From: Nitrospirota bacterium | GTDB lineage: Bacteria > Nitrospirota > UBA9217 | Assembly: GCA_963840455.1 (NCBI GenBank) | Contig: CAWIYV010000004.1 | Coordinates: forward strand, 96,001 to 160,000 | DNA: 64,000 nt | Direction of reading: 5' to 3' | Part shown: positions 6,307 to 38,313 of the stretch, one piece after another | How positions within the stretch are numbered: position 1 is the stretch's first letter | How the letters are laid out: every line of letters begins with the position of its first letter | Notes under the pieces: model-generated | The model's database searches: none | Told to the model about the DNA's origin: nothing | The model's input: only the letters and a program-made list of their open reading frames with translations | Made by a program: the position numbers and the translations under genes

Positions 6307-6730
6307 CGTCACCTTTCTTGCTTGCCCGAAGAAAGGTGACACAAAGAATGCACCCGGCGAACATTCTGATCCGGCATTCTCGGTCGTCATCGGTACATTT
6401 TAGAAACTCGCCCGAAAGTGGTAAGAGTGGGCTCAGGCAGTCTAAAATGTTTAACCCTCTGACTCGGTCGACTGCCGGGAATGTTCGCATGGGACTTCTC
6501 AAGTCTTTGCCGTACCCAAACCCCGCACGTCCACGGAGCGGCCCTATACATTTTCTGGGGCACCCGTCTTGGCCAAAGGAAGCATCCCGAAGGGCGACGC
6601 GTACTGTCTGAGGCCGAAGGCCGAGTTTACGCGGTCGAGCTGACGTGGCCTTAGACGGGTCAGAAAATGTATTCAGGCCGCGAAGGAGATGTGCAAAAAA
6701 ACCAAGCATCCTGACCATCAGCGAAAGTCC
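6307..6730 (+). repeat. Large structured repeat family A, full copy (module 1 + module 2 + linker)
   Basis: GTCACCTTTCTTGCTTGCCCGAAGAAAGGTGAC ... CTGTCTGAGGCCGAAGGCCGAGTTT ... GCAAAAAAACCAAGCATC; homologous to 7672, 8835, 12901, 18044 and 37895. Confidence 0.9.
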
Positions 6731-6782
6731 CGTTCTTTACATCATCCTTTCTTTTGTCACCTGAATGTATCTTCTCCAGATA

Positions 6783-7553
6783 CTACGTGGGGAACACGAC
6801 ACCGGACAAGCGTGCGCACTCTGAAAGATACTTGTCCTGGACAGCCGGGTCCGCGGCAGCCGGGTGACAGCTCCGGGGTTGCTGATGAGAGAAATATCTT
6901 CCCGAGACCAGGGCTTCCTTCTCCTGGCTCACCGCCAGCCACACCTGCGTCCGCGACCCTTCCTCGATGCTGACGGGAGCTCCCCGTCCTCCCATCTTCG
7001 TGGCTGCCCAGCCGGGGTCCACGGCATTGGACAATACGTCGGGCCATTTGCGGGCAACGGCAAAGGCAAGGATGACGTTGTGCAGCTTCGTATCCGAGTA
7101 GGCGCCCGATCCGGCACAAGGCCGTCTGCTCCACGTGAGGTCGTTCAATGTGGCGTCGCCGCTTCGATGGAGACCAGAGCTTGTATAGACCAGGCGTTGA
7201 GGCCTCCTGATCAGACAGGTCAGGATATAGGGGGCCAGCGAGTTCACAACGAACATCTCCGGCAGGCCGTCGACGGTCAGGCTGCAGTAGGAATCGCCGT
7301 AGACGCCGGCATTATGGATCACGGCATCGATCGGTCCGACTTCGTTCACCTGGTCGGCAAGGGTCCTCGTTTCTGCGATAATTGCAAGATCGCCCACAAT
7401 GGCGGTCATTGCGCCTGGAACTTTTAAAAGCGCCTCATCTGCCCGATCCCTATTGCGGCCATGCAGCACAACCTGGTGGCCCTGGCTGACCAGCATCCGC
7501 GCCTCCATGAGACCGAGACCGTCAGAAGAGCCTGTAATGAATATTTGTGCCAT
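6783..7553 (-). CDS. SDR family NAD(P)-dependent oxidoreductase
   Basis: ITGSSDGLG, HNAG and YSDTK motifs. Confidence 0.92.
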   Translation of the reverse strand: MAQIFITGSSDGLGLMEARMLVSQGHQVVLHGRNRDRADEALLKVPGAMTAIVGDLAIIAETRTLADQVNEVGPIDAVIHNAGVYGDSYCSLTVDGLPEMFVVNSLAPYILTCLIRRPQRLVYTSSGLHRSGDATLNDLTWSRRPCAGSGAYSDTKLHNVILAFAVARKWPDVLSNAVDPGWAATKMGGRGAPVSIEEGSRTQVWLAVSQEKEALVSGRYFSHQQPRSCHPAAADPAVQDKYLSECARLSGVVFPT

Positions 7554-7617
7554 GGAAAATTCTCCGTACCTGCTTGATTATAGCGCGGGCAATGGGCAGC
7601 GGAAAGCCGAGAAAGCA

Positions 7618-7648
7618 GTAGGTTGGGTTAAACGATGCGCAACCCAAC
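7618..7648 (+). repeat. GTAG-type REP-like palindrome
   Basis: GTAGGTTGGGTT-AAACGATGCGC-AACCCAAC hairpin preceded by GTAG. Confidence 0.55.
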
Positions 7649-7671
7649 AGCTTCTAATCTTCATCTCTTTT

Positions 7672-8197
7672 CGTCACCTTTCTTGCTTGCCCGAAGAAAG
7701 GTGACGCCAAAGAAGGGCACCCGGCGAAAATCCTTCACGGCATGCTTGGTCGTCCTCGGTACATTTCGGAAACTCGCCCTGCGGGCTCAGACAATCCGAA
7801 ATGTTTAACCCTCGTCCTCGGTCGCCTGCCTAGATTTTCGCATGGGGTATACCCCAAACCCCGCACGTCCCTGGAGCGGCCCTATGAATTTTCTGGGCAC
7901 CCGTCTTGGCCTAAGTCAGCGTCCCGGAGGGCGCTGCGCACTGTCTGAGGCCGAAGGCCGAGTTTGCGCGAGCGAGCTGACGTGGCCTTAGTCGGGTCAG
8001 AAAATTCATTCAGGGTGCGAAGGGGATATGCAAAAAAACCAAGCATCTTGATCATCAGAGAAGGGCACCCGACGAAAATTCTTCACGGCATGCTCAGTCG
8101 TCCTCGGTACATTTCGGAAACTTGCCCTTCGGGCTTCGGACATCCGAAATGCTTAACCCTCGTCCTCGGTCGTCCGCCTAAATTTTCGTATGGGGTA
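7672..8197 (+). repeat. Repeat family A: full copy followed head-to-tail by a second module 1
   Basis: 7672-8058 is a full unit; 8059-8197 repeats AGAAGGGCACCC...TTTTCGTATGGGGTA. Confidence 0.9.
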
Positions 8198-8255
8198 GCC
8201 TAAGAGCGAAAGCAACACGCATGAAGGCAAGAAAGATATGCTGTGGCGAAAACGT

Positions 8256-8708
8256 TCAATGCTTGCCGACGATCTGAAGGGTCCTGGAGTCGCGTTTGCC
8301 CTGGTAATACTTGTCGAGGACGCGGCCGAAGACCGACTGGGGACCGGATACAACCTCGAAGAGCGTCATGGACGATTGCAGTTTCCAGTCGTCGGGGTGG
8401 CCGAAGATATCCGAAGCCGATCGTCCCTGGATGGCCAGGACCGCTTCCGCGCACTCCAGGAGTCGCGGTCCGAGAACAGGGTGGGCAAGGTAGTGCCGCG
8501 CTTCTTCAAGGCTCTTGATGGAATACCGTCGCGTCGTGGGGCTGTGCCCCAAGCCCTCGACCTGCGGGAAGATATACCACATCCAGTGCGAGCGCTTCAG
8601 GCCGTCACGCAGCTCAGCAAGAGCGCGGTCGTAGATCCCTTCCTGCGCGTTGGTGAAGCGGCTCAGATCGAATGGATCACCGCGATCCGAAGTATTGGCT
8701 CTTTGCAT
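8256..8708 (-). CDS. DUF1810 family protein
   Basis: DPFDLSRF, KRSHWMWYIFPQ and KLQSSMTLF motifs. Confidence 0.9.
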   Translation of the reverse strand: MQRANTSDRGDPFDLSRFTNAQEGIYDRALAELRDGLKRSHWMWYIFPQVEGLGHSPTTRRYSIKSLEEARHYLAHPVLGPRLLECAEAVLAIQGRSASDIFGHPDDWKLQSSMTLFEVVSGPQSVFGRVLDKYYQGKRDSRTLQIVGKH

Positions 8709-8794
8709 CGTTAGGCCCACTGCCCTGCGAGAATAGGATACCAATATTTAAGCCTGACTCTCGAAGGTCCATACGGTTATCTGTAGGGAGCTTC

Positions 8795-9026
8795 AACATC
8801 AGCGAAAGTCTCTACCTTTACATCCTCTTTTCTTTTGTTACCTTTCTTGCTTGCCCGAAGAAAGGTAACCGAAAGAAGGGCACCCGGCGACCATTCTGGT
8901 CCGTCATGCTCGGTCGTCTTCGGTACATTTTAGAAACTCGCCCGAAAGTGGTAAGAGTGGGCTCAGACAGTCTAAATTGTTTAACCCTCGGACTAGGTCA
9001 CCTACCGGGAATGTTCGCATGGGACT
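8795..9026 (+). repeat. Repeat family A: linker + module 1
   Basis: CATCAGCGAAAGTC linker, then GTTACCTTTCTTGCTTGCCCGAAGAAAGGTAAC...GCATGGGACT. Confidence 0.88.
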
Positions 9027-9075
9027 CCTCCATACTTTACCCTGTACCCTGTCCCCGTGTCTCCGTGTCTCCGCG

Positions 9076-10485
9076 TCACCGTGTCTGCAGTTTGGGCGTG
9101 ATGTTCTGGTTCAGCCGGAACAGGTTTGTCGGATCGTAGCGGGCCTTGATCGCCACCAGCCGTTCCCACGCCGGTCCCGGGTATGCCTCGTGGATCCGTG
9201 CCTCGCCGTCCCTACCCAGAAAATTAACGTAAGTTCCCGATTCACCCTGTCGCAGCGCCGCAAGGAAGCCCGTTACCCAGGCTTCGTGCTTTTCCGCCTC
9301 CTCAAGATGATCGTACACCGCGCCGACCGCGGCCAGGATCCTTCTCCCGCGGTGGCTGAAGGCGGTCGCTTCGACAGGCACGCGCGCCATTGCTCCTCCG
9401 AGCACCCGGATCTGCGCCACGGCGAGAGGCGCGGTCGAGGCCCGCAGTTGTTCAAGGATCATCTGTGCCGTACCGCGGCCGACGGTGTCCCTGAATACCG
9501 TGCGGGCGGACTCTCCGACCGGATGGGGGCCGCCCTCGGTCAATGTGTAAATCTCCGGATAGCGCATCGCCCGCACCATATCGGCGAGCGGTACGGCTAG
9601 TCTCCTGAACGGGGCTATGACACGTTCCCCTTGTTCGATGGGGCCGGCATAGGCCATCATTGCCATTATGATGAGTTTGCCATACGCCTCCTTGGGCAGA
9701 AAGGGCATCGGGGGCGCGATCATGACATTGGCGATGACCGACAGTTCGTCGGCTGCTGCCTCCGCCTCTACTACGAGCGACGCGATCACCTCGGCCGTCG
9801 CCGGCAGGACCAGCATACCGCCCATGACCATGCCGATGTCATGGAGCCGGAACCGGAAACGGGTGGCAACGCCGAAGTTGCCGCCGCCCCCGCGGATGGC
9901 CCAGAAAAGATCGGGGTGCGTCGAAGCATCGGCGCGGACGAGCCGGCCGTCAGCGGTCACGATATCAGCGGCAAGAAGGCTGTCGATCGTGAGGCCGTGC
10001 TTGCGGACAAGATACCCGATGCCGCCCCCGAGCGTGAGCCCCCCGATCCCGACCGATCCCGTGTCGCCGAACCCGGTTGCGAGGCCGTAGGCATCGGCTT
10101 GGGCCGTGTATTCAGCCGCTGTCAGCCCGGTCTGGACCCAGGCAGTCCGCCCTGCAGCGTCGATCTCGAGCGCCCGCAGAGCGGAAAGGTCGAGCACGAT
10201 CCCGCCTTCCGATGTACCGTGGCCCGCAAGGCTGTGGCCGCCGCTGCGGACGGCAAGCTCCAGCCCGGCTTCAGCGGCCAGCAATACGACGCGGCTGACA
10301 TCGTTCTCTTCAGCGGCCCGGACGATGACCCGCGGCCTGCGATCGACCCACCCGTAAAAGACCGTGCGCGCCTGTTCGTACTCCCCGTCTTCCGGCGCTA
10401 TCACCCGGCCTTTGACCGCGGAACGAAGCTTTGCTATGAGGATACGTTCATCCATATTAATCACGACTATCGCGTTCTTGAACAT
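9076..10485 (-). CDS. FAD-binding oxidoreductase (FAD_binding_4 + BBE)
   Basis: RSGGHS, GGGGNFGV, YVNF and KARYDPTNLF motifs. Confidence 0.93.
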   Translation of the reverse strand: MFKNAIVVINMDERILIAKLRSAVKGRVIAPEDGEYEQARTVFYGWVDRRPRVIVRAAEENDVSRVVLLAAEAGLELAVRSGGHSLAGHGTSEGGIVLDLSALRALEIDAAGRTAWVQTGLTAAEYTAQADAYGLATGFGDTGSVGIGGLTLGGGIGYLVRKHGLTIDSLLAADIVTADGRLVRADASTHPDLFWAIRGGGGNFGVATRFRFRLHDIGMVMGGMLVLPATAEVIASLVVEAEAAADELSVIANVMIAPPMPFLPKEAYGKLIIMAMMAYAGPIEQGERVIAPFRRLAVPLADMVRAMRYPEIYTLTEGGPHPVGESARTVFRDTVGRGTAQMILEQLRASTAPLAVAQIRVLGGAMARVPVEATAFSHRGRRILAAVGAVYDHLEEAEKHEAWVTGFLAALRQGESGTYVNFLGRDGEARIHEAYPGPAWERLVAIKARYDPTNLFRLNQNITPKLQTR

Positions 10486-10524: not shown

Positions 10525-10634
10525 TGCGGAGACATCGAAGTAGCTTATATCCGAGGGAGTTCTAAGAAGGGAAAAGCTCTTTCAGGAGTATGAGCAGGCG
10601 ATGGTGTGGAAGGGCCGGAAGGAGCACTAACTAC
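10525..10634 (+). pseudogene. Degenerate 3' fragment of an SprT-like zinc metalloprotease gene
   Basis: Shares GAAGGGAAAAGCTCTTTCAGGAGTATGAG.AGGCGATGG with 24264-24443; contains a stop and indels. Confidence 0.6.
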
Positions 10635-10775: not shown

Positions 10776-11633
10776 CTAAAGATTCAGGTTCATGCTGATG
10801 CTTGCGAGAATCGCGAAGATGACGAGGTCCGCGCATACGTGCGCAAGCCAGGGAGCCACCATGCCACGGCTTTTGCGGCGGATATGGCCGAGCATGATGC
10901 CGTAGATGAAGGCCATGCCAAAGCCCCATACCCCTTTCGGGAACCCCTGAAGAAAGTGCAGCGCGCCGAACAGGCCCGCCTGAAGAAGAAGCGAGAGAGC
11001 GCCGGGACCAAAGGCGCTGTCCGTTGACTGCATCACGATGCCGCGGAAGGCGGTCTCTTCCATGGCGGCGTTCAGGAAAGCGAATCCCAGGCCCAGGAAG
11101 GGATAGGTCCAGAACGGGACGGCCGGAATATAGGCGAGATGGCGGGAGAGATCAGGGCGCAGCGCGTAATTCCAGAGATACAGGGCTATGCCCGATAGTA
11201 CCGCTGTTGCCGCCACGAGGACCAGGATGCCCTTTCCGAGCTGACCCGGCCGCAGCCACGAGAGGGCCGAGCGGAGCTTCGGGACAAGGAGCGCGATCGG
11301 GAAATAGACGATGAGCGGGATGAGAAGTTTGTAAGGCCAGTTGCGGAACAGAGGAGACACGAGGGGCGCTGTTGTTACTGCGAGGAAGAAGAGGGAAAGG
11401 CTAAGCGCCTGCCTGCTGCTGACAAAGAATGAGGCGAGCATCAGAAGAACGAAGAAACCTGCTGTCCCGACGCCCGCTCCCGGCGTTGCTACGGCAACAA
11501 AAAAGGCAGCCAGGGAGATGACGATGATCAAGCTCCCGGATAAGGACGACTTCTCAGGCGGCTCGATGTATTGACTGAACATGGGAGGACGACTTTCTGG
11601 AGAATGAAAACATTTTTCTGCATCCCGGTTCAA
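10776..11633 (-). CDS. CPBP (CAAX/Abi) intramembrane metalloprotease
   Basis: Multi-TM; EETAFRG, FGALH and AHVCAD motifs. Confidence 0.9.
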   Translation of the reverse strand: MNRDAEKCFHSPESRPPMFSQYIEPPEKSSLSGSLIIVISLAAFFVAVATPGAGVGTAGFFVLLMLASFFVSSRQALSLSLFFLAVTTAPLVSPLFRNWPYKLLIPLIVYFPIALLVPKLRSALSWLRPGQLGKGILVLVAATAVLSGIALYLWNYALRPDLSRHLAYIPAVPFWTYPFLGLGFAFLNAAMEETAFRGIVMQSTDSAFGPGALSLLLQAGLFGALHFLQGFPKGVWGFGMAFIYGIMLGHIRRKSRGMVAPWLAHVCADLVIFAILASISMNLNL

Positions 11634-11786
11634 AGGTCTGTGCAGGCATGCATTGCCGCCCTGTTTACAAGTTTACTCGAGCACCGCAGCACTTCCCCTC
11701 GCCCGAAAAAACGGGCTCGGCCGTGTCTTCCTGGCTTGGTGGTGGCATTGGCCGGGACCGCTTTCGCATGCTTGTGCACAGACCTG

Positions 11787-11893
11787 TTGAAGCTCCCAAA
11801 AGCAAACTGCATGGAGCTTCGATCCTCAGGGTAGTCTTTATTCTAGTCGCTCGCTGAGCCCAAACTGCGGGGCTGAGCTCGCTCCTGGATTCA
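11787..11893 (+). mobile_element. ~110 bp two-hairpin MITE (family B), copy 1
   Basis: TTGAAGCTCCC...CGATCCTCAGGG...CGCTCGCT...GCTCGCTCCTGGATTCA; seven copies in the window. Confidence 0.75.
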
Positions 11894-11937
11894 CGGGATG
11901 CAGGGGCCCCTGGAAAGTCAGAGGCATTGGTCTTTTA

Positions 11938-12385
11938 TCCAAGCCCCGCATGTCCCCGGCGCGGCCCTATGAAATTCCTGGGCCCCCGTCTTGGCCTAAG
12001 GCAGCGTCCCGCAGGGCGAACGCGCATGTCTGAGGCCGAAGGCCGAGTTTGCGCGGGCGAGCGGACGTAGATTAAGGGTCAGGAATCCAGGAGCGAGCCT
12101 ATTCCGCGTGCCTTACTGCGGGATCGGCGAGCGATTAGAATGATAAAACTTCCCTACGGATCTGAGATTCCCTGGAGCATGCTGCAGGGAACGTCAATTT
12201 CATTCAGGACGCGAAGGGGATATGCAAAAAATGAAATAATATACCCACTCACGTTTAACCCTCTTCCTCGGTCGCCTGCCTGGATTTGCTCCCAAGTGCA
12301 AACGGTAGTGGAGCTTTGATCCTCAAGGTTGTATGTTTATCCTAAACGCTCGCTATGCGCTCGCTCCTGGATTTTCGCATGGGAC
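11938..12385 (+). repeat. Repeat family A module 2 and partial module 1, each interrupted by a family B copy (12083-12197 inverted; 12286-12373 deleted form)
   Basis: GGGTCAGGAAT|B(rc)|TTCATTCAGG and GCCTGGATT|B|TTCGCATGGG; removing B restores the intact A sequence. Confidence 0.8.
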
Positions 12386-12419
12386 TGCAGAATCGATACA
12401 GCCTGATAGCCCGGCGCCA

Positions 12420-12900: not shown

Positions 12901-13094
12901 TTGTCACCTTTCTTGCTTGCCCGAAGAAAGGTGACCCAAAGAATGCACCCGGCGAACATTCTGATCCGACATCCTCGGTCGTCCTCGGTACATTTTAGAA
13001 ACTCGCCCGCTAATGGTTTGAGTGGGCTCAGACAGTCTAAAATGTTTTACCCTCGTACTCGGTCGCCTGCCGGGAATGTCCGCATGGGACTTCT
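12901..13094 (+). repeat. Repeat family A module 1
   Basis: Near-identical to 6307-6500. Confidence 0.88.
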
Positions 13095-13652: not shown

Positions 13653-13693
13653 GTTCGTTCGCCTCCTTCTTTCTGCCGCCTTCCCTACTGCAA

Positions 13694-13809
13694 TTGAAGC
13701 TCCCTGTAGCAAGCTGCAGGGAATCTTCGATCCTTAAGGAAGTATCGTTATACTAATCGCTCGCTAACCCAGCGGCAAGCTACGGGGAATGCGCTCGCTC
13801 CTCGATTCA
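13694..13809 (+). mobile_element. Family B MITE, full copy
   Basis: TTGAAGCTCCCTGTAGCAAGCTGCAGGG ... CCCAGCGGCAAGCTACGGGGAATGCGCTCGCTCCTCGATTCA. Confidence 0.75.
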
Positions 13810-14091
13810 TCACAGCTTTCTGCAGGGATCTTAAATATAGTATACCACTGGAGGGCCGGCTTACCTGTGGATCTTCCCGCGGGGGACAGGACGGAGCATG
13901 CATCCGCGGGAATGTATGAGAAGTCAATGGCGCAGGAGAGTCGGAAGGAGCAATGACGGGAGAATATCATGATGTCAGGAAATCATGTCTGACCCGCTAC
14001 GATAAAAAAACATCTTGTTGTATTGTTGCGCATATTGTAATATATGCCCAAACGTATAAAGTCGGCCCGGGAGGGCCAACCAAGGAGGATC

Positions 14092-14509: not shown

Positions 14510-14703
14510 TTGAAGCTCCCTGCAGCAAGCTGCAGGGAATCTCCGATCCTCAGGGTAGAACTATATTATTCTCATCGCTCGCTCCTGGATTGAAGCTCCC
14601 TGAAGATAACGGCATGGAGCTTCGATCCTCAAGGTACCTCTTTATCCTCATCGCTCGCTAACCCCGCAGCAAACTGCGGGGAATGCGCTCGCTCCTGGAT
14701 TCA
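14510..14703 (+). mobile_element. Family B MITE, head-to-tail tandem pair
   Basis: Junction CTCCTGGATT-GAAGCTCCC at ~14590. Confidence 0.75.
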
Positions 14704-14705
14704 TA

Positions 14706-17844: not shown

Positions 17845-17846
17845 CG

Positions 17847-17954
17847 TTGAAGCTCCCGCCAGCAACGGCATGGAGCTTCGATCCTCAGGGTAGTAATTTA
17901 TTCTAATCGCTCGCTAACCCCGGTTACGGGGAATGCACTCGCTCCTCGATTCAA
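17847..17954 (+). mobile_element. Family B MITE copy
   Basis: TTGAAGCTCCC...GCACTCGCTCCTCGATTCAA. Confidence 0.75.
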
Positions 17955-18043
17955 TTGTTGGGTCTTCTGACTTTCGTGTGGGCATGCAAAGTGTTTTTAA
18001 AGAATAATATGCTGAATTATCAGGCCTCAGACGACCTTCCAGC

Positions 18044-18430: not shown

Positions 18431-18486
18431 AGTTACATGGGCGAATATTACCCACACAAAACCCGGAAGATCGCAATTTTTTTGAT

Positions 18487-25840: not shown

Positions 25841-25863
25841 TCGACAGTCAAAGGTCGTCATAA

Positions 25864-26556: not shown

Positions 26557-26610
26557 AGATAGAACTAAAACTTATCTCAAAATCGCTTTAGAAGCTCTTA
26601 GCGTAATTTG

Positions 26611-26890
26611 AGGGGCAAGTCTTGTATTGTGCAATTTTGCTACAAATGCATGAGGAAAGACTTGACCCTAATGAAGGGATAGGTCATAGCGTGTGATCGA
26701 GCAACTACAGATTCAAGTGTGCCCCCAAACCCTTCATGAACCACTTGGCAGATCAATATGTCATCAAATCAAGTCTGGCCCTCGACAGTCCAAGGACCTG
26801 GAAGACCCCAGAATGTAACCTTGGCCCTCTAACGTCCACTTGAGAACGATCAACATCTCATAAACTCAAGCCTGACCAACTTCCATTCCA
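26611..26890. repeat. Family C repeat (26688-26791) with an inverted core pair and an extra core
   Basis: GGGGCAAGTCTTG / AAGACTTGACCCT inverted pair; full repeat; TCAAGCCTGACC at ~26866. Confidence 0.85.
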
Positions 26891-26897
26891 CAAAGAC

Positions 26898-27773: not shown

Positions 27774-27775
27774 GG

Positions 27776-29122
27776 CTAGTTCTCTGAGGCTTTTATATTC
27801 TCTAGCGGCGCAACATAATCTCGATATTGAGAGAGTATCTCGATTGAATGAGTTGCCAGCATTATTTGAAAGGCAGTACCTGACAGGCAAGTCGTCAAGG
27901 CTGGAATAAGTCTACGCTGCCACTCTACATTTAAAGAAATCTCTGGCTCATCAATAATAAGGATTGTCCCTTCTCGCCGTGCACTAATCGCATTACAGAG
28001 AAGCAGCAGAAGCTGTTTTTCACCTGAAGATAAAACGGCAGGATTCAACTGATTGCCTTTGTCGGATTTCAATACAAGTCCCTCGTCTAAATGGATCGTG
28101 GCATTCTTATGAGCATAGAATTCATTGAGGAGTGATACAAAGCTCTCCATGACTCTCTGTAATTCCTGCAATGCGTCTAGGCGCGCCTTATGTCCTTCTA
28201 GATATGGCCCAAGGACTGTTCTCAGAATACTTAAGCGTTGCGAACCCGCATCTGCTAAAGGACCAGTGAGCATGGCGATGTCGAGTTCTGGCGTAAGTCC
28301 AAATTTTGCAAATGTGGCATTTCTTTGCCCCAGCCGTTCAAGATCTGCTATTAAGTTTTTCAGCGTTTCTCCCGCTTGTGCCCCGGGCTCACTACCATAA
28401 GTCACTACGCGCTGAATAATATCTTTATAGATTGAATGCACTGATGTGTAGCCTACATTTGTGCCTGATAAAGCTTGTTTCCGAAACCACTCTACCGCTC
28501 CTTCTATTGACATCCTAAGTTGTATATCTGTACTTGTCGCTTTCTCCTCCTCACCCTTTATAACGATGCGTCCCTCTTCAATTTCGCTAAGCAAGCTTCG
28601 ATGCATGGCATATCGTCTTTCCTCACTCCGGCCTTCGAGTCTTCTTGTATCTCGCAAATAATGAAATGTGATCCCCAAATCATTTAACAATTGGCAAAGC
28701 CTTTCGTATTCTTTGTCTTCCTTCTTTTTTGTCTTATCAGGGATCCAAGTCCATTTGGCGATTTCTTTCTTATCCTTACTCAATGTAATATCATATGGGC
28801 CAGGGTCCGGACTCTTAGCTCTACTCGCAGAAATAGTAAGGCCTGAAGTTAACTTAATATCAAATCGAGAAAAAGGAATTTCTCCGATATATGATCTGTG
28901 ACCGCCAAAAGGCTCTGGATTCATCAGATGATAGATAAGATTTAAGAGTGTTGTTTTACCAGCACCATTTTCTCCATACAAAAGAAGCAGCTTTCCCGAT
29001 TCGGGTCCTGGTGTCGTCGCCGCAGTGAGACGATATGTGAAAGTGTTGAAAAGATCTTCTACATAGATTTGGTCAATTAAAGAAATCTTAGTTCTTTCGT
29101 CTACTTTGATCGTATTTGCCAT
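27776..29122 (-). CDS. ABC-type AAA_15/AAA_21 ATPase (PARIS AriA-like)
   Basis: GENGAGKT, LSSGEKQ, IIDEPEISL and ATHS motifs with a long insertion. Confidence 0.85.
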   Translation of the reverse strand: MANTIKVDERTKISLIDQIYVEDLFNTFTYRLTAATTPGPESGKLLLLYGENGAGKTTLLNLIYHLMNPEPFGGHRSYIGEIPFSRFDIKLTSGLTISASRAKSPDPGPYDITLSKDKKEIAKWTWIPDKTKKKEDKEYERLCQLLNDLGITFHYLRDTRRLEGRSEERRYAMHRSLLSEIEEGRIVIKGEEEKATSTDIQLRMSIEGAVEWFRKQALSGTNVGYTSVHSIYKDIIQRVVTYGSEPGAQAGETLKNLIADLERLGQRNATFAKFGLTPELDIAMLTGPLADAGSQRLSILRTVLGPYLEGHKARLDALQELQRVMESFVSLLNEFYAHKNATIHLDEGLVLKSDKGNQLNPAVLSSGEKQLLLLLCNAISARREGTILIIDEPEISLNVEWQRRLIPALTTCLSGTAFQIMLATHSIEILSQYRDYVAPLENIKASEN

Positions 29123-29326
29123 TGTGGCCTCCAATTCCCGGCAGGGAAATTTCTTTAAAGGCTGCAGACTCAATCGTTTAGCTGTCTTTGAGCGAACGCA
29201 ATGCCACCTTTGAATGGGTTGTTACTTAGGAACATTTAGGGCCAGATCTCTTTTTTTTGCAGATGCCTATTAGCGCTCTTGCTTAGGTTCGGACATCTTT
29301 GGGTACGTTGTTTTTACCTGCGCTTT

Positions 29327-29470
29327 CCTGCCGTTCTCCTGCCTGCCTTCCGCTTTCTCCCCGCTTTTGTCTTCGCCGCCCTCTTCTTTGCTTTCTTCTT
29401 CTTCGCCTTCTTCTTCGGCGCATGCCAGTTCCGCGGGATCGGCTGCAGCATGCTGATGCGGTTGCCCTCG
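29327..29470 (-). repeat. Third copy of the VOC gene 3' end
   Basis: Encodes EGNRISMLQPIPRNWHAPKKKAKKK...; matches 32297-32440. Confidence 0.9.
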
Positions 29471-29473
29471 TGC

Positions 29474-29947
29474 TTACTGGAGTTTGGTCAATATCAGATC
29501 CCAGCGTTCCAGCCACTGCTGGCTTCCTTCTGTAAAACAGTTTTGGACATCCGACCAATATGCAATAAATTTATAGACCTCTTCATCATTGCTATGAATC
29601 ATTTTAAGAGCGTCCACCGGAAGGACAAAGAACGCGTGCTTATCAAACCAATAAGCCACAATGAAATCACTTGAATTCTTCTCATTCGGCGTCACGGTAA
29701 AATGGACAGCATTTCGATTCGTTCGATCCGTAACTACATTCTGACGAGTCTTTACTTCAATCTTAATTTGTGAAATATCATGGTTGCTGTCTAAACGCTG
29801 TAAAACCAAATCGCAACCTGTTTCAGTATAATTCTTAAACAATGTCCAGCCCGGCTTATCTTGCATTCGCATGGCCAAGTTTAAGAGAACTGCGCCTTCA
29901 CCAACCTCCTGCAATAACGCCTTCAAATTTTGCGATAACTGCGCCAT
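29474..29947 (-). CDS. Small PD-(D/E)XK endonuclease-like protein
   Basis: GEGAV, GCDLV, KIEVKTRQ and DFIV motifs; AT-rich. Confidence 0.7.
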   Translation of the reverse strand: MAQLSQNLKALLQEVGEGAVLLNLAMRMQDKPGWTLFKNYTETGCDLVLQRLDSNHDISQIKIEVKTRQNVVTDRTNRNAVHFTVTPNEKNSSDFIVAYWFDKHAFFVLPVDALKMIHSNDEEVYKFIAYWSDVQNCFTEGSQQWLERWDLILTKLQ

Positions 29948-30087
29948 CCCGCCCCCCCCCACGAAACCTTTAGGGTACCAGCCCGGGGTCAGTACCAGCC
30001 CAGGGTCATGCTTAATTATTGAGATTCGGGTCGGTTGTAGGTCAAGTTCCAGAATTCACCTTCTCACCCGCCAGGCCTACCCCATCC

Positions 30088-30915
30088 TCACATCCTCCAC
30101 TCGATCTTCGGCGCATTCCTGGGCACCAGCCGCTGGTACCGGTACTTCGGATATCCCGCCATCAGGACGCCATGGACAGCGTTGTCCGCGGGGACCTTCA
30201 GGGCCTCCCGGAGCGGCTGCCATTGGAGCAGTCCCACCATGACGAAACCGGCCCAGCAGGCACCGAGGCCGAACGTGGGCGCTGCAAGGTCGAAGTAAGC
30301 GAGCGCCGAGGTGCAGTCAACGGCGCCCAGTCCGTAGGCCTTCGGCGCATGGGCAAAGACGAGCACCGGGGCCCCGCGGGTGACGCCGTCTGCCCCGATC
30401 TCCCAGTCCGCCACGACGCGGTCGAGACGGTAGCTCAGCGCTATCGGGGCCTTTGCCTTTACCAGCTCCCGCATGTGATCAACGACCATGCCGGCCAGCT
30501 TCTTCACCTCGTCGCGGGAATTGACGACGAGCCAGCTTACGAGCTGGCTGTTCCCGCCGGTGGGCGCGTACCGCGCAATCTCGATCAGCTTCTGGAGCTT
30601 CTCCTGCTCAACGCGCTTGTCCTGATACGTGCGGATGGAGCGGCGGGAGCGGAGGAACTGCTCGGCCTGTGCAGGCGACAGGCTGAGCGCCCGGTCGAGT
30701 GTAGGGAAGTCCTCGTGCTTCAGCATCGAATGGGTGAACGCACCGTGCGGACAGACGGCGACGCAGTGGCCGCACCGGATGCATCGCTCCGCCGCGTCCG
30801 GCGTCGGCACCGGTGTCGAGGAGGCATCCTTCATCGCGATGATCTTGATGGGGCATTCGGCAACGCAGATGCCGTCCCGTTTGCATTTCTTATCGTCGAT
30901 CGTAAACAGGCTCAT
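30088..30915 (-). CDS. Nitroreductase with N-terminal 2x[4Fe-4S] ferredoxin domain
   Basis: CKRDGICVAECP, CIRCGHCVAVCP, RRSIR and APTGGN motifs. Confidence 0.92.
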   Translation of the reverse strand: MSLFTIDDKKCKRDGICVAECPIKIIAMKDASSTPVPTPDAAERCIRCGHCVAVCPHGAFTHSMLKHEDFPTLDRALSLSPAQAEQFLRSRRSIRTYQDKRVEQEKLQKLIEIARYAPTGGNSQLVSWLVVNSRDEVKKLAGMVVDHMRELVKAKAPIALSYRLDRVVADWEIGADGVTRGAPVLVFAHAPKAYGLGAVDCTSALAYFDLAAPTFGLGACWAGFVMVGLLQWQPLREALKVPADNAVHGVLMAGYPKYRYQRLVPRNAPKIEWRM

Positions 30916-30987
30916 GAAGCCTCCTTGAAGCCCCGGGAGCGAACCCCTGCGGGTCAGGTCTTTACCGTTAGTATTATCCTCGTTTTA

Positions 30988-31128
30988 CTGCCGTTCTCCT
31001 TACTGCCTTCCGCTTTTTTCCCGCTTTTGTCTTCGCCGCCTTCTTCTTTGTTATCTTCTTCTTTGCCTTCTTCTTCGGCGCATGCCAGTTCCGTGGAATG
31101 GGCTGCAGCATGCTGACGCGGTTGCCCT
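30988..31128 (-). repeat. Second copy of the VOC gene 3' end
   Basis: AGGGCAACCGCGTCAGCATGCTGCAGCCC...; matches 32298-32438. Confidence 0.9.
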
Positions 31129-31158
31129 GCTAAACGGTGAGACCTGCCCTCAGCATTC

Positions 31159-32136
31159 CTAATATATTTTTTCCATCTCCTCGCGCTTTGTGTAGGGAAC
31201 AATATCGAGAACTTCGCTGTTCCGGAATACCAATGCGAGCTTCGGCACTTCTTTTCCGCCTTCTACGTAACCGAACCCCCAGACGGTAATTACACCGGCA
31301 GGCCGCAGCATGGTCCATCGATGCTCGGACGTGGTGTTCAAGAACCCTTTCATACCGAAGATCGTAAAATCCACTCCCGTCGGCATCATCACGAAGATCC
31401 CGCCAAGCGTTTTCACAGCCACCATCAGCGGAGTACCTTTATTCAATTGCTTCAATTTCAGCTCCGACTCTTGAAACGCGGCAGGTGATAAATAGGCGCT
31501 GCTATAGGAACCACTGGTGATCGGCGTTTTTTCAGCAGTGATCCCGGCGGGGTCCGGTTCAGTAAAAGGCAGCGCCTGAACGTCCTTTACTCGTATGTCC
31601 CTGAGGTAGATCTGCGTATTCACCACACCCGGGTCGCGTACGGACCCGATATTCGGCGCCTTGCTCGCCTGAAGCTTTTTGTATTCGTCCTGAGAGATAA
31701 GACTGGCTTCGGTCCTCAATATATATTTCGGTACGAGATTAATTTCGCCCCAGATATATCCGAAAACATGGGAACCATACACCGTGTCCCCCGACCGGCC
31801 GATAAGAGAGCCAAATTTATAATAGGCCTGCTCAATTCCACCGGACATGCTCTGGATCCATCCGTCCGATTTTGTTACCAAAGCGACTGTCCTGCTTCCC
31901 TGCTGGATCGGGAACACAGCCCACTTGAGACCCGTCGCGTCCGGGGAATCGCCGGGTTTTAATTTAAGGAGTAACGGCTCTGCCCTGCTAAAAGCATCTT
32001 TAGAAGCGGATTCGGCAAAAAGTTCGCGTTTCATATCCTCGATTGCACGTTGTTGCTTCGAGGCACAGCCCGAAACGACGGTGTGCGCTAGAATAAGAGC
32101 GCAAAAGAGCAGAACTATATTATATCTGAGGTTCAT
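31159..32136 (-). CDS. Hypothetical lipoprotein
   Basis: Signal peptide with lipobox VSGC; 325 aa. Confidence 0.7.
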   Translation of the reverse strand: MNLRYNIVLLFCALILAHTVVSGCASKQQRAIEDMKRELFAESASKDAFSRAEPLLLKLKPGDSPDATGLKWAVFPIQQGSRTVALVTKSDGWIQSMSGGIEQAYYKFGSLIGRSGDTVYGSHVFGYIWGEINLVPKYILRTEASLISQDEYKKLQASKAPNIGSVRDPGVVNTQIYLRDIRVKDVQALPFTEPDPAGITAEKTPITSGSYSSAYLSPAAFQESELKLKQLNKGTPLMVAVKTLGGIFVMMPTGVDFTIFGMKGFLNTTSEHRWTMLRPAGVITVWGFGYVEGGKEVPKLALVFRNSEVLDIVPYTKREEMEKIY

Positions 32137-32286
32137 ATTGATCTCCTACCGTTAACGATGAATGAGACTTAAGATATATCGATGAGCGATAACTACACGG
32201 GAGTCCCGGTAGCAAATCTGTACTGTTTATATGGCCGGTCGTGGGCCAGGCCCGTAATCCTGGATTGATTCTTCATAGTGTTTCTA

Positions 32287-32788
32287 CTACCGCCTCCCTG
32301 CCGTTTTCCTGCCTGCCTTCCGCTTTTTCCCCGCTTTTGTCTTCGCCGCCTTCTTCTTTGCTATCTTCTTCTTCGCCTTTTTCTTCGGTGCATGCCAGTT
32401 CCGCGGGATGGGCTGCAGCATGCTGACGCGGTTGCCCTCGGGGTCCATGAACGAGACATAGCTTCCCACGCCGGGGATCTCCATGGGTTCACCGAGCACG
32501 CTTCCCGCCGGCCTCCGCGACCTTTGCGATCGCCTTCCTGATATCGTCCACCGCGATGACGATGGACGGATACTGCGCAGGCCAATCGGGTCGTTTCGGG
32601 TAGAACCCGCCGTTGATCGCGCCGGGCCTCTTCGGCCCCTTCTCCCCGGTCTCGACGGTGGTCGCGAGGACGTAGCTGCCCATCTCCTCGCCGAGCATCT
32701 CTGTCTGCCAGCCGAAGGCGGACCGGTAGAACTTCGCCATGCGCTCGCGGTCCTCGAACGGCATCTCAAAGTGAACGACAGGATCCAT
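32287..32788 (-). CDS. VOC/glyoxalase protein with Lys/Ala-rich tail; 1-nt frameshift at ~32501
   Basis: MDPVVHFEM..PGAINGG..AGGK|VLGEPMEIPGVG..DPEGNR, joined across two ORFs. Confidence 0.85.
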
Positions 32789-32902
32789 GGTGTGACCTCC
32801 AGTTTTGTAAGTATGAATTAAGAAGTAAGAACGTAAGGAAAGAAGAAGTTACTTCTTTCTTCGCTTTTGCAAGTGAGACAGACATTTCCGCAACGGCAAC
32901 GG

Positions 32903-33325
32903 CTACCGTCCCGCACCAATGAGCGCCAGGAACTCCTCCGGTGTCATGACCGGGAGCCGGTCAGTCCTGTAATCCGCCTTATTCCGGGTGATCAGGCAGT
33001 CGGCCTTGACGTGGAGCGCTGAATAATACTGCACCGCGTCCTCAAAGTCCTTGAAGGTCGAGACGAGTGAAAGGTCGATCACCTTTTCATCAACTGCAGC
33101 GACCCGAAAGACGATCCTCAGTTTTTCAAGAACCCGCATCGCCTTCTCCCGCTTCAATTCTCTCGACAAGAGATAGAACATCGTCGGGAAGCTCTGCGCT
33201 GAGAGATACCCCTGGAGCTTCTTTTCTTCGATCAGGGAGAACAGCCGGGCCGCAGGGCTGTAATGCGGATCCCGCTTCAGGAATATGTCGAGGATGACGT
33301 TGATATCGCAGAGAACACTTTTCAC
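32903..33325 (-). CDS. PIN-domain toxin (VapC-like)
   Basis: LCDINVILD, DFEDAVQ and ITRNKAD motifs; GTG start overlaps the antitoxin stop. Confidence 0.88.
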   Translation of the reverse strand: MKSVLCDINVILDIFLKRDPHYSPAARLFSLIEEKKLQGYLSAQSFPTMFYLLSRELKREKAMRVLEKLRIVFRVAAVDEKVIDLSLVSTFKDFEDAVQYYSALHVKADCLITRNKADYRTDRLPVMTPEEFLALIGAGR

Positions 33326-33576
33326 CGATACTTCTCCGCGAGATGTTTCCGGTATCGCTCGCGCAGCTGCGCGGCATCCTGTTTGCCTGAAAGCACTCCA
33401 GCGACCTCGTACAGGACCGGTGATTCCCTCACCTCGTGCGTTCCCTGGTCTGCAACGGCCTTGAAATAGTCCTCTACCATACGAGACAGGCTGACACCCT
33501 TCGAGCTCGCAGTTTTTTTTGCCTTCCGAATGACGGTCTCTTTCAGCCGCAGGGTAAGTTTTGTGGTCATGAACAT
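33322..33576 (-). CDS. DUF6364-type RHH antitoxin
   Basis: MTTKLTLRL..AK..GVSLSRMVEDY..EKY, upstream of the PIN gene. Confidence 0.82.
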   Translation of the reverse strand: MFMTTKLTLRLKETVIRKAKKTASSKGVSLSRMVEDYFKAVADQGTHEVRESPVLYEVAGVLSGKQDAAQLRERYRKHLAEKYR

Positions 33577-33649
33577 CCCTCCAAAATGAGACGTACATAT
33601 GATAATATTATGTACGTCACCTGTCAAGTGCTTTCGTTGCTGTAAATAA

Positions 33650-33699: not shown

Positions 33700-33809
33700 T
33701 CACTCTTCCTTCAATATCCTCCACAGGCTCGTCCGCGAGATGCCGAGCATCTCTGCTGCCTTGGAACGGTTCCCGCCGAAGAGGCCCGGCACCCGTTCCG
33801 CGTACTCCT
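33700..33809 (-). repeat. Duplicated 3' end (Fis-HTH) of the 34712-36043 regulator gene
   Basis: Matches 34712-34821 ([25 protein letters not shown]). Confidence 0.9.
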
Positions 33810-34711: not shown

Positions 34712-36043
34712 CTACTCTTCCTTCAATATCCTCCACAGGCTCGTCCGCGAGATGCCAAGCATCTCTGCGGCCTTGGAACGGTTCCCGCCGTACAGCTCAA
34801 GCACTTTTTCGGCATACTCCTTGTTCAGCTCATCCATGGTCCGGACCTTGGACGGATCGAGGGTCTCGATCTGGAACACCGACATGCTCTGCGGTAGGCT
34901 TTCCGGCGTAATGACGCTGCCTTTTTCCAGGATGATGGCGCGCTCGACGATGTTCTCGAGCTCCCGTACGTTCCCGGGATAGCTGTAGTTCCCGAGCACG
35001 GCCATGGCCTCTTTCGAAAAACTGGTGATCTTCTTGTTCGACCGGGGCAGGTGCTTCTTCAGGAAGTAGGCGGCCAGCGGTTCGACATCGTCGCGGCGCT
35101 CACGCAGCGGCGGGATGAAGATCTCCATCACGTTCAGGCGGTAATACAGGTCCTCGCGGAACTTTCCCGTGCTGATGAGGCCCCGCACGTCCTGGTTCGT
35201 TGCCGCGATGAACCGCACGTCCACGTGGATCGGCCGGGTCCCGCCGACGCGGTAGAACTCGCCCTCCTCGATCACCTTGAGCAGCTTGGCCTGCAGATTC
35301 GGCGCCATCTCGGCGATCTCGTCCAGGAACAGCGTGCCCGTATCGGCGATCTCCACGAGCCCCTGCTTGGTCTTGACCGCGCCCGTGAACGCGCCCCGTT
35401 CGTGTCCGAACAGCTCGCTCGCGAGCAGCTCCTCGGTCAAGGTGGCGCAGTTGATGGACAGGAACGGTTTGTCCTGCCGCCGGCTGGTGAAATGAACGAT
35501 CTTCGCGAGCAGGCTCTTGCCCACGCCGGTCTCGCCGGTGAAGAAGATGTTGCTCTCCGAGCCCTTGATGCTCTCGATGGTCTCGAGGATCTGCTTCATG
35601 GGGACGCTCTTGGCGATGATGGACACTTTCTTGTCCATGCCCAGATAGGTCTTGAGGGCGATGTTCTCGCGGATCAGCCCCTTCCGGTCACGGATCTTCC
35701 CGACCTTGAGCAGGAGCTCGTCGAGGTCAAAGGGCTTCGTCAGGTACTCAATGGCCCCCTTTTTCATCGCCTCGATGGCCGAGCCGATGCTGCCGTACCC
35801 GGTCACGATGATGACTTCCAGCTCGGGCGTCTTCTCCCTGACCCGCTCCAGGAGCTCGAGCCCGCTCATGCCCGGCATCTTGATGTCCGCGATGAGCAGG
35901 TCGAAGGAGTCCGACTCGGCCTTCCGCAGAGCATCGATGCCGTTCGTCGCGCTCTCGACGGCATACCCTTCTTTTTTGAGGGTATTGACGAGATGCTTGA
36001 CCGTGATCTCTTCGTCTTCCGCTATGAGTATCTTGAATGCCAT
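34712..36043 (-). CDS. Sigma54-dependent response regulator (NtrC/ZraR type)
   Basis: [24 protein letters not shown], Fis HTH. Confidence 0.96.
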
Positions 36044-36170
36044 GGCTTCACCTGTATGACGAAAGGATGCTGAACGTAAGAGGGAAGGAATATCGGCATC
36101 TTCGGCCGTTCTGCTTACCTTCTCACCATCTCCCGGTCACCGTATCCCCGCATCGATCTGTCTGCGTTTC

Positions 36171-37793
36171 TTAACTTCCCGGCCCGTCCCCGAGGGATTC
36201 AGTCGGGGATGTCCCCGTGTCCATGAATTGCTTTACCGGCAGCGTGATCGTGAACATTGTGCCCTTTCCTTCTTCGCTCGCCACCGTGATCTCGCCGTGA
36301 TGCTTCTTGATGATATTGAAGACGATCGCCAGCCCCAGCCCGGTCCCCTTGTCCTTGGTAGTGTAGAACGGTTCGAAGATCTTGTCCAGGGCGTCCTTCG
36401 GCATGCCTTTGCCCGTATCGGCCACAACGGCCACGACCGCGTCATCCGACGAACGGATAGAGACCTTGATCTCTCCCCGCCCGTCCATGGCGTCGGAGGC
36501 GTTCAGAAAGAGGTTGATGAAGACCTGTTCCAGCTGGTCCGGATCCGCCTGGAGCACTGCGCCACGGGTTGCCGGTTCCAGGAAAAAAGCTATCCGCTCC
36601 ATGCTGCCCCGCATGCGGACCTGGATGCCCCGGACCAGATCGTTCATATCCACATCGCGGAGCTGCGGCTCGCGGCCCCGGGCGAACTCGAGCAGGTCCC
36701 CCACGATCTTCTTGACCCGCACGGTCTGGCCCAGGATGTCTCCCATCACGTCCTTCATGGCAGGCGGGCAGTTGTCCCCTGCCTCGCGGGCAAGGACCTG
36801 GGTCGAGAGATAGATGTTGTTCAGCGGGTTGTTCAGCTCATGGGCCACGCCGGCAGCCAGGGTACCGATGGCCGCGAGCTTCTTGCTCTGGAGCAGCTCC
36901 TGGTTCTTCCGTTCGATCTCCGCTTCCCGGGCCGCCAGCTCGTCCTCCATGTGATCGAACTTCCGGATGAGGATCCCGACCTCGTCATTTCCCCACCTCT
37001 GCTCCGGCGCGGCCACGTGAGGGAAGGACCCCTTGCCGGTCCGGTCCACAACATCGATGAGGAGGCCGAGGCGGCCCACGATGTTCCGGGTGATGAAGAA
37101 GAGCATGGTGATGCCCGTGACCAGGAAGAGCGGGAACACGACCAGGATCGCGATCTGGGACATCCTGATCGCCGACTCGACCTTCTGCCGGGCTCGGTCG
37201 TCCAGATCCCGGGAAAGGTTGATGATGTCCTCGCCGGTTTTCCTGAGATCGTTGATATCGCTGTCAAGCTCCCGGAGGCCCATGATGAGCTCGTGCCGTG
37301 CAGGCAGATGGAAGACTGTCGATAAAAATTCGGAGGCCTGGCGGGGCCGTTCATAGAAGGCCGATTCGATGAGCGGGAAGAACTGGGCATACTGCCGGTG
37401 GCCGCGCTGAAAAATCAGCAGGGCGCGGGTCAGTTCTTCCAGTCGCGACTCGATGGCATCAAATCGGGTCCGGTAGCGGCTGACCAGCGCCTGCAGCGAC
37501 TGCTGGGACCCCCTCCGTTCGGAGGGGACCATGCCGGCCAGGTTCACATCGAGCTCGTCGAGGTAGCGATGGATGTTTGCGGACTCTTCGCGTGATTTTG
37601 AGGGGCTGTAGAGAAAAAAGTTCTTTTCGTGCCGGCGGAGCTGGAGGGACTTGGTGCGGACCGTGTCCGTCAGTTCCAGGAACCGGATCTCGCTCTTGAT
37701 CCTGACGACGTTGACATATTCGAACGTTGCAAGGACCGCGATGATCGCGGCGCTGAGGATGAAGCTGAGGGCTATTTTTTTCTTGAGGGACAT
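36171..37793 (-). CDS. Membrane sensor histidine kinase
   Basis: Two TM, LRRHEKNF sensor, HAMP-like segment, AHELNNPL, G boxes. Confidence 0.93.
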   Translation of the reverse strand: MSLKKKIALSFILSAAIIAVLATFEYVNVVRIKSEIRFLELTDTVRTKSLQLRRHEKNFFLYSPSKSREESANIHRYLDELDVNLAGMVPSERRGSQQSLQALVSRYRTRFDAIESRLEELTRALLIFQRGHRQYAQFFPLIESAFYERPRQASEFLSTVFHLPARHELIMGLRELDSDINDLRKTGEDIINLSRDLDDRARQKVESAIRMSQIAILVVFPLFLVTGITMLFFITRNIVGRLGLLIDVVDRTGKGSFPHVAAPEQRWGNDEVGILIRKFDHMEDELAAREAEIERKNQELLQSKKLAAIGTLAAGVAHELNNPLNNIYLSTQVLAREAGDNCPPAMKDVMGDILGQTVRVKKIVGDLLEFARGREPQLRDVDMNDLVRGIQVRMRGSMERIAFFLEPATRGAVLQADPDQLEQVFINLFLNASDAMDGRGEIKVSIRSSDDAVVAVVADTGKGMPKDALDKIFEPFYTTKDKGTGLGLAIVFNIIKKHHGEITVASEEGKGTMFTITLPVKQFMDTGTSPTESLGDGPGS

Positions 37794-37894
37794 GGGGTCA
37801 CGTGGATGCACATGGTAGCATATCTCTGGCCGGTGTGCAATCCAAAGAATTAAGGAGTTTCCCTTCTTGCGTAAAATACTCAAAGGAGTCAGTT

Positions 37895-38313
37895 TTTCGG
37901 TATCCCCTTCGCGTCCTTACTGATTTCTTGACCGTCTACGGCCACGTCCGCTCGCCGCGCAAACTCGGCTCCGACCTCAGACTGCGCGTTCGCGTGCGGG
38001 ACGCTGCCTAGGCTAAGGGGTGAGAAGAGATCCAAAGGGCCGCTCCGGGGACATGCGGGGTTTAGGGAACTGCTGACCCAGCCGTCCCATGTGACAATCA
38101 GGCAGACAACCGAGGACGAGGATTAGACATTTTAGACTGTCTGAGCCGACGGCGAGCTTTCTAAAAAGACCAAGGACAGACCGATCTGCCGTATGGATTT
38201 TCGCCGGGTGCTCTTCTTTTGGTCACCTTTCTTCGGGCAAGCAAGAAAGGTGACAAAGGAGCGTATGATTAAAGACCCGGATCTTCGCTGATGTTCAAGA
38301 TGCTTGGTTTTCT
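37895..38313 (-). repeat. Repeat family A, diverged inverted full copy plus linker
   Basis: Reverse complement of modules 1 and 2; TTCGCTGATG..GATGCTTGGTTTT linker at ~38284-38311. Confidence 0.85.

Follow-up and report, generated by a model that had tools for sequence, protein, structure and literature searches.

Organization of the family A repeats

The stretch of DNA analysed here (hereafter the window) is 64 000 nucleotides long and corresponds to C4:96001-160000 (contig CAWIYV010000004.1) of a 14-contig, 4.03-Mb assembly of an uncultured Nitrospirota bacterium (GCA_963840455.1; genome G000 in our numbering). It contains a repeat family, designated A, that is built from three modules: H0, a 33-nt hairpin present six times in the window; M1, a long hairpin of about 132 nt present seven times; and M2, a branched hairpin of about 185 nt present five times. 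The 25-nt centre of H0 occurs six times in the window and in none of 100 shuffled sequences. A complete element is about 500–580 bp long and runs from a 23-nt terminal inverted repeat (TIR) through a left arm, H0, M1, M2 and a right arm to a second TIR. We consider it probable that family A is the non-coding inner core of a mosaic, ISL3-type family of MITEs, or miniature inverted-repeat transposable elements, of uncultured Nitrospirota.

All of the repeat copies listed in a preliminary description of this DNA, made from the sequence alone, are present; the copies are real, although their starts had been placed one or two bases away from those of H0. That description also recognized a core common to M1 and M2 in opposite orientations, and this holds: M1 aligns with the reverse complement of M2 over 32 nt with a score of 40 (shuffled sequences, 18.9 ± 3.1, maximum 29), and positions 51–86 of an M1 covariance model match four of the M2 copies on their minus strand. 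The alignment is limited to the 32-nt core, which rules out that M1 is all of M2 in inverted and diverged form. When the entire genome was searched with nhmmer, 32 M1 and 40 M2 matches were found that merge into 48 loci; M1 is followed by M2 at 14 of these and the remainder are single modules or fragments.

Ends, target-site duplications and a resident ISL3 element

Outside the window the genome carries two copies, 99.9 % identical, of a 1378-bp insertion sequence (IS) at G000:C7:250049-251426 and C11:167657-169034. The IS has an open frame of 383 amino acids, and the two copies account for both of the genome's matches to PF01610 (DDE_Tnp_ISL3; 241.2 bits against a cut-off of 23, profile positions 1–239/240). 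Each copy is flanked by a perfect 8-bp duplication, and both IS ends begin with GG. An 8-bp duplication and inverted repeats starting with GG are hallmarks of the ISL3 family, and by its transposase domain, its duplication and its ends the parent IS belongs to that family. Close relatives (86–93 % identity) are present in genomes G002 and G011.

The TIR pair of the 514-bp copy at window positions 17960–18473 was found with a position matrix seeded from the two IS ends and then iterated, with reversed or complemented sequence as the control. This matrix, which supersedes an earlier loose regular-expression census of ends whose 355 sites were mostly noise, finds 24 sites of at least 18 bits in the genome as against two in the controls. 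A TIR pair surrounds 7 of the 48 genome loci at a spacing of 327–760 bp, and the flanking 8-mers match at six or seven of eight positions in all seven pairs. At three of the seven, H0, M1 and M2 all lie inside the pair, giving elements of 514 bp (in the window), 526 bp (C8:79079-79604) and 516 bp (C11:347643-348158), each with flanking 8-mers identical at seven of eight positions. The C11 copy is a sister of the window copy, and homology between them extends well past H0-M1-M2 to the inverted 23-nt termini. Among 73 loci scanned in other genomes there are ten distinct TIR pairs around modules, 502–668 bp apart. Nine of these have measurable flanks, and their 8-mers match at 8/8 (three pairs), 7/8 (three), 6/8 (one), 4/8 (one) and 3/8 (one) positions, so that seven of the nine lie within the range 6–8/8. 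Complete copies measure 502–582 bp; they are small, multicopy and without a transposase gene, and the targets into which they have inserted are AT-rich, with 8 bp duplicated.

An exact empty site is provided by G003:C428: it carries a single GTTATTTT at the place occupied in G000:C8 by the 526-bp element, which is flanked there by GTTATTCT and GTTATTGT. In a second relative, G001:C67, a block of the window that includes the 514-bp copy is absent. The copy at G000:C11:295577-296117 is not a clean empty-site test, because the approximately 2 kb that relatives lack there takes in a neighbouring gene. The IS-like TIRs, the 8-bp duplications and the empty sites together argue that family A is a MITE moved by a DDE transposase rather than a single-strand hairpin element. 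It had been suggested earlier that the repeat might be a single-stranded DNA mobile element; its mobility is thus upheld but the single-strand mode is not.

It is very improbable that the modules are themselves hairpin mobile DNA read as folded single strands (like REP/REPIN sequences with their RAYT transposases, IS200/IS605 ends or attC sites) and that the ISL3 ends are secondary. Such a reading would accommodate the bulges retained in the imperfect hairpins, the existence of solo H0-M1 and solo M2 units without long TIRs, the cassette-like layout of the window between 6 and 19 kb, where single small genes alternate with repeats, and some 20 H0-M1 units in a genome without ISL3 (G052; see below). 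REPs are short, of about 20–40 nt, and are linked to RAYT (Y1) transposases; IS200/IS605-type elements are not known to duplicate their target and are associated with TnpA or TnpB; attC sites are short imperfect palindromes with R and L boxes at cassette ends with IntI nearby, and neither TIRs nor 8-bp duplications are among their known features. The family A modules, at 132–185 nt, exceed the sizes of REPs and attC sites, and complete copies make 8-bp duplications. PF07282 (TnpB) has no match in the genome, and the two PF01797 (Y1 transposase) matches (G000:C10:393728-394087 and C14:236761-237003, both outside the window) are remnants, each with an in-frame TAG, whose flanks are not family A. 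Furthermore, five other genomes contributed six Y1 loci, at which neither M1, M2, H0 nor the unrelated repeat B described below was found, and Y1 has no match in G052. The RAYT/REPIN and IS200/IS605 readings are ruled out by the absence of TnpB, by Y1 remnants and loci that lack the modules and by the 8-bp duplications. We note that the flank of the C14 remnant is yet another repeat, of about 110 nt, with about 20 copies in the genome.

Mosaic forms

The 23-nt ends are missing from the majority of copies, among them all but one of the seven in the window (Table 1). The preliminary description noted a linker both after M2 and ahead of the next unit and deduced head-to-tail multimers from it. 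This deduction is correct in part. The linker does occur after M2 (6701-6735 and 8038-8062) and before H0 (8797-8836 and 38255-38313), but it consists of element arms: beginning behind M2, it passes into the left arm ahead of H0 (6701-6762, 8797-8836 and 38255-38313), and at 8038-8062 it is fused straight to a second M1. There is also a second MITE subfamily, in which M2 lies behind a different upstream module of about 230 nt and which has related ends of its own.

Further disruption is associated with repeat B, a sequence of about 115 nt with two hairpins that is unrelated to A and which a profile search finds 300 times in the genome, in 247 cases at nearly full length; every genome of the genus has dozens of copies. 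B is inserted into M1, into M2 and into the 230-nt module upstream of M2, beside a CCTG(G/T)(A)TT-like sequence, and the broken mosaic at 11613-12400 is interrupted by B copies (11787-11893 and further pieces). A and B repeats lie at many contig ends of related assemblies and probably limit their contiguity.

Table 1. Family A elements and modules and repeat B copies in the window (positions are those of the window)
Feature	Position	Strand	Remarks
Complete MITE, 514 bp	17960-18473	+	Left TIR, left arm, H0, M1, M2, right arm, right TIR
Left TIR, 23 nt	17960-17982	+	Identical to IS left end at 17/23, to IS right end at 19/23
Right TIR, 23 nt	18451-18473	-	Identical to IS right end at 20/23; C11 sister 21/23
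Left 8-bp target-site duplication, CAATTGTT	17952-17959		7/8 identical to 18474-18481
Right 8-bp target-site duplication, CAATTTTT	18474-18481		
H0 of complete MITE	18042-18074	+	
M1 of complete MITE	18084-18217	+	Covariance model, 147.8 bits
M2 of complete MITE	18247-18430	+	Profile match at C4:114247-114430
H0, all copies	6308-6340, 7673-7705, 8837-8869, 12903-12935, 18042-18074	+	Located by 25-nt centre
H0, all copies	38222-38254	-	Located by 25-nt centre
M1, full (n=7)	6348-6493, 7715-7846, 8063-8194, 8878-9023, 12943-13088, 18084-18217	+	Covariance model
M1, full (n=7)	38086-38213	-	Covariance model
M2, full (n=4)	6516-6700, 7854-8037, 18247-18430	+	Profile search
M2, full (n=4)	37893-38065	-	Profile search
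M2, interrupted	from 11939	+	Profile search
Short-arm copy	6279-6762	+	Left arm, H0 6308-6340, M1 6348-6493, M2 6516-6700; linker 6701-6735, then truncated second left arm and H0 stub; 23-nt TIR not found in end-matrix scan
Short-arm copy	7644-8194	+	Left arm, H0 7673-7705, M1 7715-7846, M2 7854-8037; partial linker 8038-8062, then second M1 8063-8194 without H0
Copy without M2	8797-9023	+	Linker fragment, left arm, H0 8837-8869 (GTTACC/GGTAAC variant), M1 8878-9023
Broken mosaic	11613-12400	+	Other-subfamily upstream module from 11613, M2 from 11939, M1 3′ part from 12254
Copy without M2	12903-13088	+	H0 12903-12935, M1 12943-13088
Inverted short-arm copy	37893-38313	-	M2 37893-38065, M1 38086-38213, H0 38222-38254, left arm and linker 38255-38313
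Repeat B	11787-11893, 13693-13812, 14590-14704, 17846-17954		
Repeat B, partial	14510-14590		
Repeat B, inverted pieces	within 12069-12374		

Folding and covariation

The fold was examined on alignments of sequences (42 for M1, 32 for M2) taken from the window and from seven further genomes, and the main helices of the RNAalifold predictions and of our own structures agree for both modules. In M1, 19 of 35 pairs are changed on both sides, amounting to 104 double-changed cells as against 27.8 ± 4.1 in shuffled alignments, and in M2 the corresponding values are 18 of 51 pairs and 78 cells as against 20.1 ± 3.5; none of 500 shuffles reaches the observed count in either module, although the cells count sequences and not independent events, the copies form subfamilies and the shuffle control ignores this kinship. 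When the pairing partners are slid by one to three columns the counts fall to 9–27 for M1 and 7–12 for M2. Standard pairs occupy 93.4 % of the M1 cells and 94.2 % of the M2 cells, and several column pairs (18/129, 32/121 and 69/77 in M1; 39/161 and 95/122 in M2) show three or four standard pair types.

The co-varying stems quoted in the preliminary description are thus present, with covariation in the larger alignment far above the shuffled and slid controls, and its proposal that the fold is under selection agrees with the maintenance of the stems by compensatory change. Two details require amendment. The stem letters of the third M2 variant (ATGAAATTCCTG / CAGGAATTTCAT) occur in the sequence, but the 3′ half was read across an unrelated repeat inserted at about 12069. 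The loops had also been said to vary freely. Only the terminal ones do; conservation of the internal loops and of the junctions equals that of the stems. Mean column identity is 0.88 for paired and 0.90 for unpaired columns of M1 and 0.91 for both classes in M2; features kept across copies include the internal loops, the junctions, a bulged A, asymmetric internal loops and one G.T pair in each module.

A purely mutational account would be that these are MITEs without selection on the fold, in which one arm of a quasi-palindrome is overwritten from the other by template switching and the changes are then inherited within subfamilies. The strand symmetry described below is what a DNA-level process is expected to give, and the subfamilies have paired changes in common, a relatedness that the shuffles ignore. 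Arm copying should, however, perfect the palindromes, whereas bulged A residues, G.T pairs and large asymmetric internal loops with direct rather than inverted repeats are kept across copies and families, and the column pairs with three or four pair types also speak against it. We therefore regard this account as quite unlikely.

Strand and gene context

The conserved G.T pair of each module is a wobble on the plus strand only (33 of the 42 M1 rows and 30 of the 32 M2 rows). Other wobbles were counted on the plus strand and, as A.C, for the minus strand, with values of 17 and 36 for M1 and 34 and 30 for M2; as plus-strand wobbles are not in excess, the data do not single out one folding strand. 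All 48 genome loci lie between genes, and the four classes of neighbour orientation contain 16, 12, 10 and 10 loci on gene calls that are crude open reading frame (ORF) picks; insertion thus occurred without gene-orientation bias. Between 6200 and 9100 there are three promoter-like sites (1.6 ± 1.3 in shuffles) and one terminator-like site (3.0 ± 1.8 in shuffles), neither in excess. A weak promoter-like site at 17979-18008 is directed into the core of the complete copy, and a terminator-like hairpin followed by a T run is present on the minus strand at 18459-18433. A cis-regulatory element or terminator is ruled out by the absence of orientation bias and by promoter- and terminator-like sites that do not exceed the shuffles.

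No part of the window matches Rfam 15 at gathering thresholds, and over 6200-9100 a search with E-values up to 10 gives chance-level matches only, the best (E=0.5) being to a eukaryotic small nucleolar RNA model. The earlier remark that the repeat is not recognized as a named family holds for Rfam and for the literature searched.

These observations bear on the possibility that H0-M1 and M2 are structured non-coding RNA genes with a function of their own, which an ISL3 MITE has only captured and multiplied. The co-varying stems with constant internal loops and junctions are what such genes would show, and the plus-strand wobble of the conserved G.T pairs, the promoter-like site directed into the core and the conservation in G052 of the H0 loop, the M1 internal loops and the apical core, with changed stems and no ISL3 gene found, could be read in the same way. 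On the other side, plus-strand wobbles at the remaining pairs do not exceed those of the minus strand, the same core lies on opposite strands of the two modules, and orientation bias, promoter- and terminator-like sites above shuffle level and Rfam matches are all lacking. The strand-symmetric pairing, the absence of gene-orientation bias and the core on opposite strands argue against a strand-specific RNA, and we judge this possibility unlikely; a dedicated RNA gene is the less likely explanation of family A.

Because of the strand symmetry, the inverted shared core and the lack of orientation bias, we tentatively favour selection at the level of DNA or of transcripts of either orientation. 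Selection would most likely act on the element as foldable DNA, with the conserved loops perhaps serving as sites for a transposition or host protein and placed symmetrically in the two halves; alternatively, it might act on read-through transcripts of either orientation.

Distribution and origin of the core

Of 24 genomes from the same family, 18 contain the element by BLAST, as does 1 of 16 from outside it. The M1 model, a home-made one with rough E-values, has matches in 22 of the family's 27 genomes and in 6 of 123 from the rest of the phylum. A degenerate pattern scan gave 80 listed matches, of which seven (in five records) are from Nitrospirae/Nitrospirota and the others are chance matches in GC-rich genomes; the loci kept from it for the alignments (L011, L037, L045, L071 and L082) are from Nitrospirae/Nitrospirota metagenome-assembled genomes. 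G052, a 2.1-Mb genome of another Nitrospirota family, has about 20 H0-M1 units of about 185 nt without M2 (loci L219–L232) that carry further conserved flanking pieces of their own. G052 keeps the apical core, the loop of H0 and the internal loops of M1, whose two arms bear the same short direct repeat, and its H0 and M1 stems are altered yet still paired. The conserved loops of H0-M1 suggest a sequence-specific partner.

Several observations weigh against an origin of family A as ISL3-type MITEs. A recognizable TIR pair surrounds only the 7 genome loci mentioned above and, in the window, only the copy at 17960-18473; the other six window copies have short arms with GGnTCTT-like tips that match only the first seven or eight bases of the ends, and a MITE origin is assigned to them because they are homologous to complete copies. 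M1, M2 and H0 were not found in the IS or in any of 14 ISL3 loci from ten genomes, which rules out the transposase element as the source of the core; the six Y1 loci mentioned above, likewise without modules, rule out a RAYT system. The genomes G021 (10 contigs, 100 % complete), G003 and G113, rich in complete elements, are without a PF01610 match, although absence of the transposase from relatives is weak evidence because their assemblies are fragmented. G052 is without a PF01610 or PF01797 match, so that H0-M1 may spread, or be kept, independently of ISL3. Finally, the block absent from G001:C67 is that at 17852-18474 of the window; the empty site, where GAATTGTT is present once, lies between two genes with a spacing of about 20 nt, but this is not a clean single insertion because the missing 620-nt block also has a B repeat.

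Since G052 keeps the core, and G052, G021, G003 and G113 are without PF01610, the core exceeds the vehicle that now carries it in age or in the breadth of its conservation. This leaves some room for a further reading, to which we give a small chance, slightly above that of the RNA-gene explanation, in which H0-M1 and perhaps M2 would be an old self-standing structured module, kept in at least two Nitrospirota families and captured by ISL3 MITEs, with its conserved loops read by a protein or RNA partner. If this were true, the module would be expected to confer an advantage on its carrier, such as higher transposition, tolerance within operons or an RNA useful to the host, and it would parallel, in bacteria, the functional RNA cores that eukaryotic short interspersed nuclear elements contain.

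On the interpretation that family A consists of ISL3-type MITEs, which we prefer, complete copies would be mobilized in trans by the resident ISL3 transposase. The short and mosaic forms that dominate the window would then result from decay, from other repeats inserting and from recombination among the copies, the mosaic products presumably including H0-M1 alone, M2 with another upstream module and the abutted arms of the linker. The MITE family would account for a conspicuous share of the intergenic DNA in these uncultured, sulfur-cycling bacteria and point to active or recent ISL3-type transposition in this group of Nitrospirota, including insertion between genes about 20 nt apart. It also holds a caution for RNA discovery, since strong covariation, conserved loops and the lack of an Rfam match would carry such a sequence through most screens for non-coding RNA although it is transposon cargo with strand-symmetric pairing. 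Why selfish DNA should retain so elaborate a fold is a question that can be approached with this element; H0-M1 occurs with changed stems in a second family, which lacks the transposase.

Comparison with known repeat families

Bacterial MITEs are described in reviews (PMC3184786, PMC10969869) as having ends that resemble those of an IS, flanking direct repeats, sites found both filled and empty, and stable folds. Like the IS-derived MITEs covered there (Nezha, Chunjie and Correia/nemis), family A is non-coding, multicopy and intergenic, has TIRs like those of a resident IS, a duplication of the length made by that IS, filled and empty sites and a stable predicted fold. Unlike them, as far as they are described in these reviews, family A lies at the large end of the size range (500–580 bp), has a core of three structured modules unrelated to the IS rather than a fold-back of the ends, has modules that also occur alone and recombined, and has an ISL3-family element as its parent.

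The account of bcr1 of the Bacillus cereus group in PMC3184786 (after Klevan et al., 2007) describes a mobile intergenic repeat of about 155 bp with 5-bp flanking direct repeats and two independent stem-loops kept by compensatory changes, which is reported to be transcribed. Family A is likewise mobile, intergenic, flanked by direct repeats and made of compensatory stem-loops; going by the same account it differs from bcr1 in its 8-bp duplication, in the presence of a matching IS and in its three modules, and it is known here from DNA alone. The REP, BIME and REPIN sequences of Proteobacteria resemble family A in forming mosaic intergenic arrays of modules in variable combinations and orientations and in serving as insertion targets for other elements, but no Y1 locus is flanked by family A modules, and complete copies have DDE-type ends and 8-bp duplications. 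Our literature search yielded general MITE papers and no description of such elements in Nitrospirota. An IS-derived MITE is a known kind of element; what this analysis adds for a structured Nitrospirota repeat is its ISL3-type ends, duplications and empty sites.

Other features of the region

Between 6200 and 19400 the window has a cassette-like layout, in which small genes stand singly with A and B repeats between them. Their functions are unrelated; the products include DJ-1/PfpI, short-chain dehydrogenase (SDR), DUF1810, BBE-type oxidase, CAAX protease, AHSA1, PhnB-like, DsrE, DsbA-like, RibD_C and DUF188 proteins. The SDR gene (6783-7553) sits between two direct A copies. At the locus of G003:C307 that is syntenic to 5670-8724, this gene and both flanking A copies are absent, and only 208 nt, including a remnant of the 3′ part of M1, separate the DJ-1 gene from the DUF1810 gene. 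This difference suggests recombination between the repeat copies, and genes may be gained or lost through recombination between A repeats.

The segment from 20100 to 33600 has several ORFs with a third-position G+C of 0.35–0.49, as against 0.7–0.9 elsewhere, and looks like imported DNA. It includes genes for an HTH_32 protein (22812-24092), an HNH endonuclease (24496-25341), an AAA_21/AAA_15 ATPase (27776-29173) and a PIN-domain protein (32903-33598) together with several ORFs that have no Pfam match, and it may be a defence island. Four direct repeats unrelated to A and B are also present in the window: one of 162 nt in three copies (29309-29470, 30969-31130 and 32279-32440; 86–91 % identity) and three in two copies each, of 300 nt (19725-20024 and 25450-25749; 95 %), 108 nt (33702-33809 and 34714-34821; 88 %) and 70 nt (10565-10634 and 24378-24447; 89 %).

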